A DNA stretch of 64,000 bases from Escherichia coli (GTDB lineage Bacteria; Pseudomonadota; Gammaproteobacteria; Enterobacterales; Enterobacteriaceae). The stretch is taken from assembly GCF_022846255.1 (NCBI RefSeq), contig NZ_AP025682.1; one strand, written 5' to 3'. A program made the position numbers and the translations under genes. The notes beneath the pieces were generated by a model. It was not told the DNA's origin. It worked only from the letters and a program-made list of their open reading frames with translations, and searched no databases. This document shows positions 62,829-63,542 of the stretch, in pieces (the stretch's first letter is position 1; each line of letters starts with the position of its first letter).

Positions 62829-63542
62829 ATGCTGAAGATGATTAAAGATTTTAAATTCAAAAAATACATTAAAAAATTACGTGAAGAAGGTTTGTTTTTT
62901 TATGTTTCTTTCGGGTTTATATTAACATTGTTAATGGAAGTTGATGACCGATTACCGTACTATCTTCAACAAGACTTCTTTTTTGATACACTTATAGGAT
63001 TTATGCCAATCAATATACTCTTTGTTTTGATTTGCATAAATGCATTTTTCATTTTCGTCCACACACTTATTTCACCTTATAAAGGTCAAAGAGTTGGTGA
63101 GAAATTTCTCTCTGAACTTGATAAAAGAACGCAACAAATTGGCTTTATTATTTCATTCATATGTTTTGGCATGACATTGTTTTGTGCTCTGGCGTGGTTG
63201 CTGTTTTTTGAGATGAATACTGAAAGTTACTACGCAAAATATACATTAGATTTTTTGGCTGTTTTTATCATTATGATTATGTTTTCTTCAGCAGTTAATC
63301 CAGTCATGAGAAGAATATTCCAAAAAATGAAGGAATCGGACTCACATGGAAATTCAAAAATAATTCTTATAATTATAATCATTACATTATTGCTACTATT
63401 ACCAATTGCGTGCATTATCAATAAAAATAAAACAATTGAAATCAATATTAAGAAAGAAACTTATCAGCAAATAAAAGAAAAAACAAAGATGAAACCAGAA
63501 GATTATATCAAAAAATTGATTGCTGATATTAAATTCAACTAA
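62829..63542 (+). CDS. Hypothetical multi-pass membrane protein, very AT-rich
   Basis: 237-aa ORF with AAGGA RBS; several hydrophobic segments, Lys-rich termini; GC far below the window average. Confidence 0.5.
   Translation: MLKMIKDFKFKKYIKKLREEGLFFYVSFGFILTLLMEVDDRLPYYLQQDFFFDTLIGFMPINILFVLICINAFFIFVHTLISPYKGQRVGEKFLSELDKRTQQIGFIISFICFGMTLFCALAWLLFFEMNTESYYAKYTLDFLAVFIIMIMFSSAVNPVMRRIFQKMKESDSHGNSKIILIIIIITLLLLLPIACIINKNKTIEINIKKETYQQIKEKTKMKPEDYIKKLIADIKFN

Follow-up and report, generated by a model that had tools for sequence, protein, structure and literature searches.

A hypervariable membrane protein gene with a predicted ribbon-helix-helix tail at the yjiS border of the Escherichia coli immigration control region

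Gene X and Its Locus

A gene for a small membrane protein was examined at the end of a type I restriction-modification (R-M) locus in Escherichia coli (contig NZ_AP025682.1, assembly GCF_022846255.1), within a window of 64,000 nucleotides that comprises the whole stretch of DNA analyzed. The gene, here called X, lies in the immigration control region, a classic defense hot spot of E. coli and Salmonella, and constitutes a hypervariable, horizontally exchanged cassette at the yjiS border of that region. Its product has an exact counterpart in the protein collection, E. coli BDH35002.1 / WP_244331590.1. In annotated E. coli the order runs btsT-yjiX-yjiA, BrnA-family, Fic, GmrSD, hsdM-hsdS-hsdR, X (as a hypothetical protein), and yjiS-yjiR (Table 1). 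No mention of X was found in the papers retrieved on the immigration control region, where the gene, its copy in Salmonella Typhimurium LT2 included, had sat unannotated.

Table 1. Features of the hsd-X-yjiS interval and its upstream flank (positions in the window)
Feature	Position	Strand	Description
BrnA-family antitoxin gene	~52290-52592	-	upstream of hsdM
Fic-family gene	52731-53465	-	upstream of hsdM
GmrSD type IV restriction gene	53509-55608	-	699 aa; upstream of hsdM
hsdM	55884-58238	+	type I R-M gene
hsdS	58238-59503	+	type I R-M gene
hsdR	59500-62763	+	type I R-M gene
GC-rich inverted repeat	62774..62805		GCCGGGGT-N10-ACCCCGGC; in the 65-nt hsdR-X spacer
Shine-Dalgarno AAGGA	62818..62822	+	read from the sequence; 6 nt 5' of the ATG of X
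Gene X	62829..63542	+	237-aa membrane protein with predicted ribbon-helix-helix tail; intact reading frame, ATG start
Membrane domain of X, residues 21-198	62889..63422	+	five predicted hydrophobic helices; hydropathy, AlphaFold2 model, family alignment
Ribbon-helix-helix-like tail of X, residues 199-237	63423..63539	+	predicted strand TIEINIK, helix A ETYQQIKEKTK, helix B PEDYIKKLIADI
Strong inverted repeat	63547..63580		5 nt after the X stop, between convergent X and yjiS; probable 3'-end hairpin
yjiS (DUF1127)	63618..63782	-	first conserved core gene

An initial annotation, made by eye from the letters and a list of open reading frames, had described X as the most AT-rich coding stretch of the window, equipped with its own good ribosome-binding site (RBS) and placed between hsdR and yjiS, and all of this holds. 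The GC content of the gene is 27.6% against 51.0% for the window (31.9/22.7/28.2% by codon position), and the lowest-GC segment of 714 nt in all 64 kb starts at 62838 with 27.2% GC, which makes X the most AT-rich stretch. The AAGGA is invariant across five aligned alleles, E. fergusonii included, and the hsdR-X junction, RBS, and start codon are nearly invariant among the aligned alleles. From the hsdR stop at 62763 it is 65 nt to X, and the yjiS stop at 63618 lies 75 nt from the gene. A canonical promoter scan of the hsdR-X spacer returned no sigma-70-like site, and an Rfam scan of 62000-64000 returned nothing relevant.

The strong inverted repeat reported downstream of X was also borne out. 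It folds into a 13-pair stem with one bulge and, on either strand, does better than every one of 200 shuffles (z = -3.7 and -4.2). The stem has no uridine tail and a consensus terminator scan finds nothing, so the hairpin is not a canonical intrinsic terminator. Its E. fergusonii version (locus L025, 10706-10752) forms a perfect 14-bp stem (z = -6.6) with a compensatory change from TAG/CTA to TGG/CCA, a double change that is evidence for probable selection on the stem itself. Unrelated hairpins stand 3' of X in the Salmonella and Pseudocitrobacter loci. Set between convergent genes, the downstream repeat is better read as an RNA hairpin at the 3' end of a unit's last gene than as an operator. 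The repeat in the hsdR-X spacer (-17 kcal/mol) is no better than shuffles (z = -1.2); it is conserved in E. coli alleles and degraded in E. fergusonii.

Linkage to hsdMSR

Whether X always accompanies this hsd type had been left as a check, and in E. coli the association proved essentially complete. Among 5426 complete genomes, 114 (2%) carry X, always on the chromosome, in single copy, and at 93.7-97.5% nucleotide identity, and the full hsdR-X-yjiS stretch occurs in the same 114. This hsdR accompanies X in 114/114 genomes and X accompanies hsdR in 114/116. The hsdMSR genes (55884..62763, plus strand) and X are inherited as one block that is kept in E. coli E69 and in E. fergusonii. The order GmrSD-hsdMSR-X-yjiS is shared by E. 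coli and E. fergusonii, and the divergent E69 has the hsdMSR-X block without GmrSD, Fic, or BrnA. Only from ~63607-63618, where yjiS ends, does the window again resemble most E. coli genomes, so that X and its hairpin belong to the variable cassette. With the BrnA, Fic, and GmrSD genes (52290-55608), the variable region holds at least three further conflict modules.

Two extra hsdR copies, ~80% identical, were found at another chromosomal site, with an AAA-ATPase/McrC pair in place of X, and the slot after hsdR looks exchangeable for accessory defense genes. In Escherichia, X travels with this type I cassette; it is not required by the enzyme family. The possibility that X is an Hsd subunit was ruled out: it has no Hsd domain, a related hsdMSR lacks it, and relatives of X occur without any hsd gene.

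The second-site hsdMSR of E. coli GDSC2227PM (NZ_CP135595.1; locus L023, 3322-13559) shares its island with ParB-like genes and IS1. The window HsdM is unusually long, ~781-784 aa compared with ~529 aa for EcoKI-like HsdM (L004/L026), and the gene order is M-S-R.

Predicted Architecture

The description of X as a multi-pass membrane protein with Lys-rich termini agrees with the hydropathy profile, which places hydrophobic segments at approximately residues 21-38, 55-82, 103-127, 141-160, and 178-198, with 8 Lys/Arg (K/R) within the first 20 residues and 11 within the last 39. An AlphaFold2 model built from a 13-sequence family alignment renders these segments as helices (mean predicted local distance difference test score, pLDDT, 72.6; predicted template modeling score, pTM, 0.58), and long helices span residues 84-125 and 133-172 of the membrane domain. 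The family alignment further reveals a conserved loop motif, LPYYLQQ-FF-DT, at residues 42-54 and four invariant positions (L42, L97, G114, and Y135); no conserved transporter or enzyme motif appears in it.

On which side of the membrane the C-terminal tail lies is ambiguous from charge and hydrophobicity, and the answer would decide between mechanisms. The K+R bias of the loops strongly favors the N-terminus, loop 2, and loop 4 inside (18 vs 2 in E. coli X), with the same direction in other family members; an N-in protein with five spans would carry its tail in the periplasm. Across the family, however, the tail holds 7-12 K/R and is as basic as a cytoplasmic segment, and the bias is nearly gone in most members once it is counted. 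On an approximate Hessa-type hydrophobicity scale, the enteric alleles have their weakest segment in the first one, which is clearly membrane-like in distant members.

A Salmonella-type variant of 215 aa (protein P0011; L003 1114-1758 vs L026 9965-10666) displays an in-frame deletion of the fourth hydrophobic helix. Such a loss would flip the side of the tail; the allele is perhaps non-functional, or else a naturally occurring alternative topology.

Conservation across X alleles is highest in the last ~40 residues, whose alignment consensus is x-I-x-I-x-I-KKE-Y-x-x-I-K-E-K-T-K-M-K-P-E-D-Y-I. They display the beta-alpha-alpha unit of the ribbon-helix-helix (RHH) superfamily (~35-45 residues with an alternating hydrophobic strand), hydrophobic and polar residues alternating in TIEINIK. 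When two tails were joined as tail-(GGS)n-tail, AlphaFold2 returned a strand at 3-11 and helices at 12-22 and 26-35 in each copy, and the strands of the two copies pair; pLDDT is 84-91 within the domains and falls below 50 in the linker. The predicted dimer forms through an antiparallel two-stranded ribbon, and its modeled fold matches solved RHH structures. Foldseek lists TraY and AvtR among the top matches, not significantly. Tails of distant members scanned alone against Pfam retrieved NikA-like (5.8e-5) and TacA1 (7.6e-4) models and, more weakly, RHH_7 (1.8e-3), RHH_1 (3.0e-3), FitA-like (2.6e-2), and CopG_antitoxin (7.1e-2). A tail profile searched against PDB gave as its top match 1x93 (HP0222), weakly (E = 0.074), which we take to be an Arc/MetJ-type RHH protein. 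Taken alone, the E. coli tail matches none of the RHH sequence profiles significantly, so that the family and the predicted structure carry the assignment.

Computation alone thus describes X as a predicted five-helix membrane domain followed by a C-terminal RHH module. The module is modeled to pair two subunits via a two-stranded beta-ribbon, and the working unit would accordingly be at least a dimer. The initial annotation was right about the anatomy (a multi-pass protein, an RBS, a hairpin, and a position appended to hsdMSR) and overlooked both the RHH module and the Salmonella homolog STM4522, described below. Known RHH proteins of the Arc/MetJ/CopG superfamily (TraY, Arc, CopG, NikA, and the TacA antitoxin) are, to our knowledge, soluble cytoplasmic DNA binders. 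X differs in that its module follows five membrane helices in the same chain and could face the periplasm, and we know of no RHH protein with an extracytoplasmic location.

Homologs and Their Neighborhoods

Remote-homology searching and structure prediction, both suggested at the outset, retrieved only uncharacterized relatives and brought out the RHH tail. The earlier statement that no homolog could be recognized does not stand: homologs exist, but none is characterized. The family is small. Eight clusters came out of a word-indexed search through 5.8 billion proteins and 12 out of an exhaustive HMMER search through 1.84 billion representatives, and a profile search added an Enterobacter member. 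A genome-wide scan with a narrower family alignment found only two species representatives. An AFDB50 fold search with full-length X likewise retrieved only uncharacterized relatives, from E. coli, Citrobacter farmeri, Salmonella, Pseudomonas prosekii, and Vibrio parahaemolyticus, and no annotated fold.

Conservation in related islands, the absence of which had been named as grounds for dropping the defense proposal, was found in Salmonella, Pseudocitrobacter, and Vibrio. STM4522 of Salmonella Typhimurium LT2, annotated as a "putative inner membrane protein", is a true homolog, with relatives in Pseudocitrobacter, Citrobacter, and Enterobacter. Like X, it possesses five hydrophobic segments, the LPYYLQQ-FF loop, and an RHH-like tail, and adjoins yjiS at the end of an hsd locus. 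Unlike X, it belongs to a locus with another type I family (hsdR-M-S order, EcoKI-like, with mrr) and follows the symE toxin gene, not hsdR. In Salmonella Infantis the homolog is 233 aa long and 37% identical to X, and the order is mrr (STM4527), hsdR, hsdM, hsdS, symE (STM4523), X homolog (STM4522), and yjiS (STM4521), with the LT2 locus tags taken from the notes of the Infantis record itself. "STM4522" was not found in searchable literature text, nor a function described for it. The source record, AFYI01000007.1, has been filed among the phages but is chromosomal, a 501-kb contig of Salmonella Infantis SARB27.

The arrangement hsdS-symE-X recurs in a Salmonella-type contig. A locus whose X homolog is catalogued as Pseudocitrobacter faecalis has mrr-hsdRMS-symE-X-aldehyde dehydrogenase, and a further context reads unidentified gene end-X-aldehyde dehydrogenase-hicBA-yjiN. 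In the S. diarizonae type strain CCUG 30040T (L016 7698-11002), the hsd genes are gone and symE, an X split over three frames, and yjiS remain, apparently what is left of a decaying hsd-symE-X locus. In place of hsd, yjiA is followed in this strain by genes for an AraC-type regulator and a LysE-type exporter. A Salmonella-type X following symE in E. coli itself was considered and rejected, as the match ends at symE in the 2865 symE genomes.

Distant members, at 20-26% identity, come from Vibrio, Enterobacter, and a gammaproteobacterium in which the gene is linked to hut. The Vibrio relative (22% identical) lies between a ubiquitin-like/E1 operon and a dGTPase defense gene. Its island (L011-L014, ~3400-13900) comprises VspR, an M78 peptidase/HTH pair, a Multi_ubiq-ThiF(E1)-BubE operon, several small uncharacterized genes, and the dGTPase, which matches a PADLOC defense model at E = 1.6e-53; in some Vibrio contigs a 5'-nucleotidase gene is inserted directly after the X relative. 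In this small sample, X has a defense neighborhood in Escherichia, Salmonella, Pseudocitrobacter, and Vibrio, and none in Enterobacter or at the hut-linked locus. No partner gene is shared by the X homologs, and neighbors of the Vibrio and Enterobacter relatives are without NCBIfam matches.

A prophage or plasmid origin was rejected. No relatives were found in 50,697 phage records, the mis-filed Salmonella contig apart, in 72,556 plasmids (tblastn), or in IMG/VR.

Selection and Variability

X is a real gene under purifying selection. Between seven intact Escherichia alleles dN/dS, the ratio of nonsynonymous to synonymous substitution rates, is 0.21-0.59 (Nei-Gojobori), and the pooled pN/pS ratio, taken by region of the protein, is 0.25 for residues 1-60, 0.60 for 61-95, 0.11 for 96-140, 0.60 for 141-198, and 0.08 for the tail. 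Residues 61-95 and 141-198 could mark a surface that meets a variable partner. Among the E. coli alleles, amino-acid changes cluster in helix 2 and the loop after it and in helices 4-5, and hardly any fall in the tail or around helix 3. Intact copies make up 28 of 30 sampled from E. coli.

The enteric alleles fall into at least four deep types at 31-45% identity, and homologs that are 20-45% identical still have all five segments and the tail. Between the Pseudocitrobacter-type and Salmonella loci, protein identity is 96% for hsdM, 94% for the aldehyde dehydrogenase, 92% for hsdR, 77% for mrr, 74% for symE, 45% for hsdS, and 33.5% for X. X is thus more divergent there than hsdS, which encodes the notoriously variable specificity subunit, and this pattern is the signature of a conflict gene. 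The GC content of the homologs is 26-36% against 39-56% for their hosts, each lying 4-28 points below its locus. Genes of this AT-rich kind would be typical H-NS targets in enterics; nothing on X was found in the supplements of two H-NS papers.

Relation to Described Families and Systems

By sequence comparison, X appears to belong to no described family. PADLOC-DB 2.0 gave no match for X up to E = 1 and none for seven divergent relatives up to E = 0.1, and PHROGs searched with X and its relatives gave only families of no assigned function (E >= 0.0068). Scattered weak transmembrane matches to DUF898, MscS_TM, MatE, Cation_ATPase_C, and SieB were rejected as composition-driven, the SieB match being confined to 1 of 13 members (E = 1e-3). 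A clear match to a housekeeping membrane protein, which would have counted against the defense proposal, was looked for in Pfam and NCBIfam and none was found. X accessions are absent from the DefensePredictor supplements.

At most, X would work like inner-membrane exclusion proteins or the membrane components of abortive-infection systems. T4 Imm, P22 SieA, lambda SieB, HK97 gp15, and F-plasmid TraS block the entry of foreign DNA and, like X, are small, AT-rich, inner-membrane proteins without enzymatic motif and with allele-specific divergent sequences. Unlike X, they are borne by phages or plasmids and are not known to have an RHH module, and apart from the marginal SieB match no sequence relation is detectable. 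PHROGs, SieB, and phage carriage place X outside the known phage superinfection-exclusion families, and the plasmid search places it outside the plasmid entry-exclusion proteins (TraS/Eex). RexB, Kiwa KwaA, and the membrane effectors of CBASS, Pycsar, and retrons resemble X as multi-pass proteins of defense islands, and collapse or sense the membrane on infection; they have a partner sensor gene, whereas X has neither a conserved partner nor a PADLOC match. Accessory genes in type I R-M loci include the prrC anticodon nuclease gene (prr locus) and the Campylobacter jejuni rlo genes. These too are non-hsd genes riding with a type I cassette, and PrrC backs up inhibited restriction. PrrC differs from X in being a soluble ABC-ATPase-type nuclease bound to the enzyme, X being a membrane protein without nuclease or ATPase motif.

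Proposed Role and Alternatives

We tentatively favor, as a possibility somewhat short of even, the reading that X is an RHH-dimerized membrane accessory factor of immigration control that works at the inner membrane, through either exclusion or abortive infection. Contact with the invader, for instance with phage ejection or membrane proteins, would fall to the variable membrane helices, and the conserved basic RHH tail would hold the dimer together and bind nucleic acid or a DNA-like ligand. Incoming DNA would then be excluded or, if X were triggered, membrane integrity would be lost in an abortive infection; either outcome would back up restriction by the neighboring type I enzyme. Taken broadly, an anti-invader role of any kind is conceivable without being probable. 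Membrane-level exclusion as the specific mode is unlikely, and an abortive pore is more doubtful still.

An abortive-infection or phage-exclusion effector is what the initial annotation had proposed. The defense context fits that proposal; the lack of a family match and the two distant relatives in housekeeping surroundings do not, and the argument is one of guilt by association. Several observations weigh against an accessory factor of immigration control. For X and seven divergent relatives there is no convincing PADLOC, PHROGs, NCBIfam, or Pfam model, and no experiment or expression data on X were found in the literature searched. The linkage to hsdMSR may be positional, as X is invariably found at one and the same border of a recombination hot spot, and the related hsdMSR (80% identity) works without X and carries McrBC-like genes there instead. 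The Enterobacter relative follows, and overlaps, a GFA-family gene amid housekeeping genes, and another adjoins hut genes in a 43%-GC gammaproteobacterium. Loop charges favor an N-in/C-out topology that would put a DNA-binding fold in the periplasm, a bias that the charge of the tail nearly cancels. Finally, frameshifts disrupt X in two E. coli genomes (A20 and KE50) among the 30 sampled and in the type strain of S. diarizonae.

Two variants of an anti-invader role, together improbable, would make more specific use of the RHH module. In one, X would be a membrane-tethered sensor of DNA or of DNA mimics that guards the type I enzyme: incoming DNA or an anti-restriction protein such as Ocr/ArdA would be detected at the entry site, and the five-helix domain would switch to an exclusion or pore state. 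In the other, hinted at by the loop charges, an extracytoplasmic RHH would act on the injection machinery or on DNA in the periplasm.

The alternative that survives best, although we consider it unlikely, is a membrane protein whose physiological role has nothing to do with foreign DNA, for example in small-molecule or ion handling or in envelope stress, and that hitch-hikes at the border of a recombination hot spot. It would account for the housekeeping surroundings of the distant relatives, one of them overlapping the GFA-family gene, for the lack of similarity to any defense family in PADLOC, and, through positional inheritance at a constant border next to yjiS, for the linkage. It sits poorly with the presence of X in only 2% of complete E. 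coli genomes, with its extreme divergence relative to its flanks and foreign base composition in every host, and with the lack of a conserved transporter or enzyme motif.

Less probable is a membrane-tethered RHH transcription factor, a ToxR/CadC-like one-component sensor whose five-helix domain would respond to a signal from the envelope or membrane and whose cytoplasmic RHH dimer would repress its own or neighboring genes (hsd, symE, or yjiS). That the RHH-fold tail is the most constrained part of the protein, that it is basic (11 K/R in 39 residues), and that palindromes lie nearby all suit a regulator. The loop charge bias, however, puts the tail outside the cytoplasm, and the outward-facing residues of the beta-strand vary between alleles. 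The best palindrome, moreover, lies downstream between convergent genes and, with its compensatory change, resembles an RNA hairpin; no conserved operator was found for the tail, and the neighboring genes differ between hosts.

A selfish toxin or addiction element is very unlikely. X would here be membrane-damaging, with an antitoxin-like RHH part that keeps expression low, and would stabilize the hsd cassette. RHH folds are typical of type II antitoxins, the distant tails match TacA1, FitA, and CopG-antitoxin models, the loci are rich in toxin-antitoxin genes (BrnA/Fic, symE, and HicAB), and hydrophobic AT-rich genes are often toxic. Yet no separate partner gene is conserved beside X, and known small membrane toxins do not resemble a five-helix protein of 237 aa. 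That X is a decaying or non-functional remnant, its frame open by chance, is scarcely credible: the frameshifted copies in A20, KE50, and the S. diarizonae type strain and the Salmonella-type variant without helix 4 would suit it, but it is largely refuted by the selection data (dN/dS well below 1, with 0.08 in the tail), and the 28/30 intact copies, the conserved RBS and junction, and an architecture common to deep homologs in Escherichia, Salmonella, Pseudocitrobacter, Enterobacter, and Vibrio also speak against it.

New here are the predicted five-helix-plus-RHH architecture, the LT2 homolog STM4522, and a variability above that of hsdS. Were X an accessory factor of immigration control, it would add a membrane-level layer to a type I R-M locus, the combination of five helices with an RHH would be new in the defense repertoire, and the RHH fold would for the first time be seen anchored in a membrane, possibly outside the cytoplasm. 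If it has no defense role, X is still a hypervariable xenogeneic cassette diverging beyond hsdS, useful for understanding how the region recombines.

Other AT-Rich Patches in the Window

Further AT-rich patches of the window, at 33-36% GC, lie at ~20487-22400 and ~31900-32900 and have no connection to X. The former is upstream of two LuxR-type regulator reading frames, presumably yjjQ-bglJ, and the latter covers the 5' end and upstream region of a reading frame for a 557-aa cation/proton exchanger-like protein.

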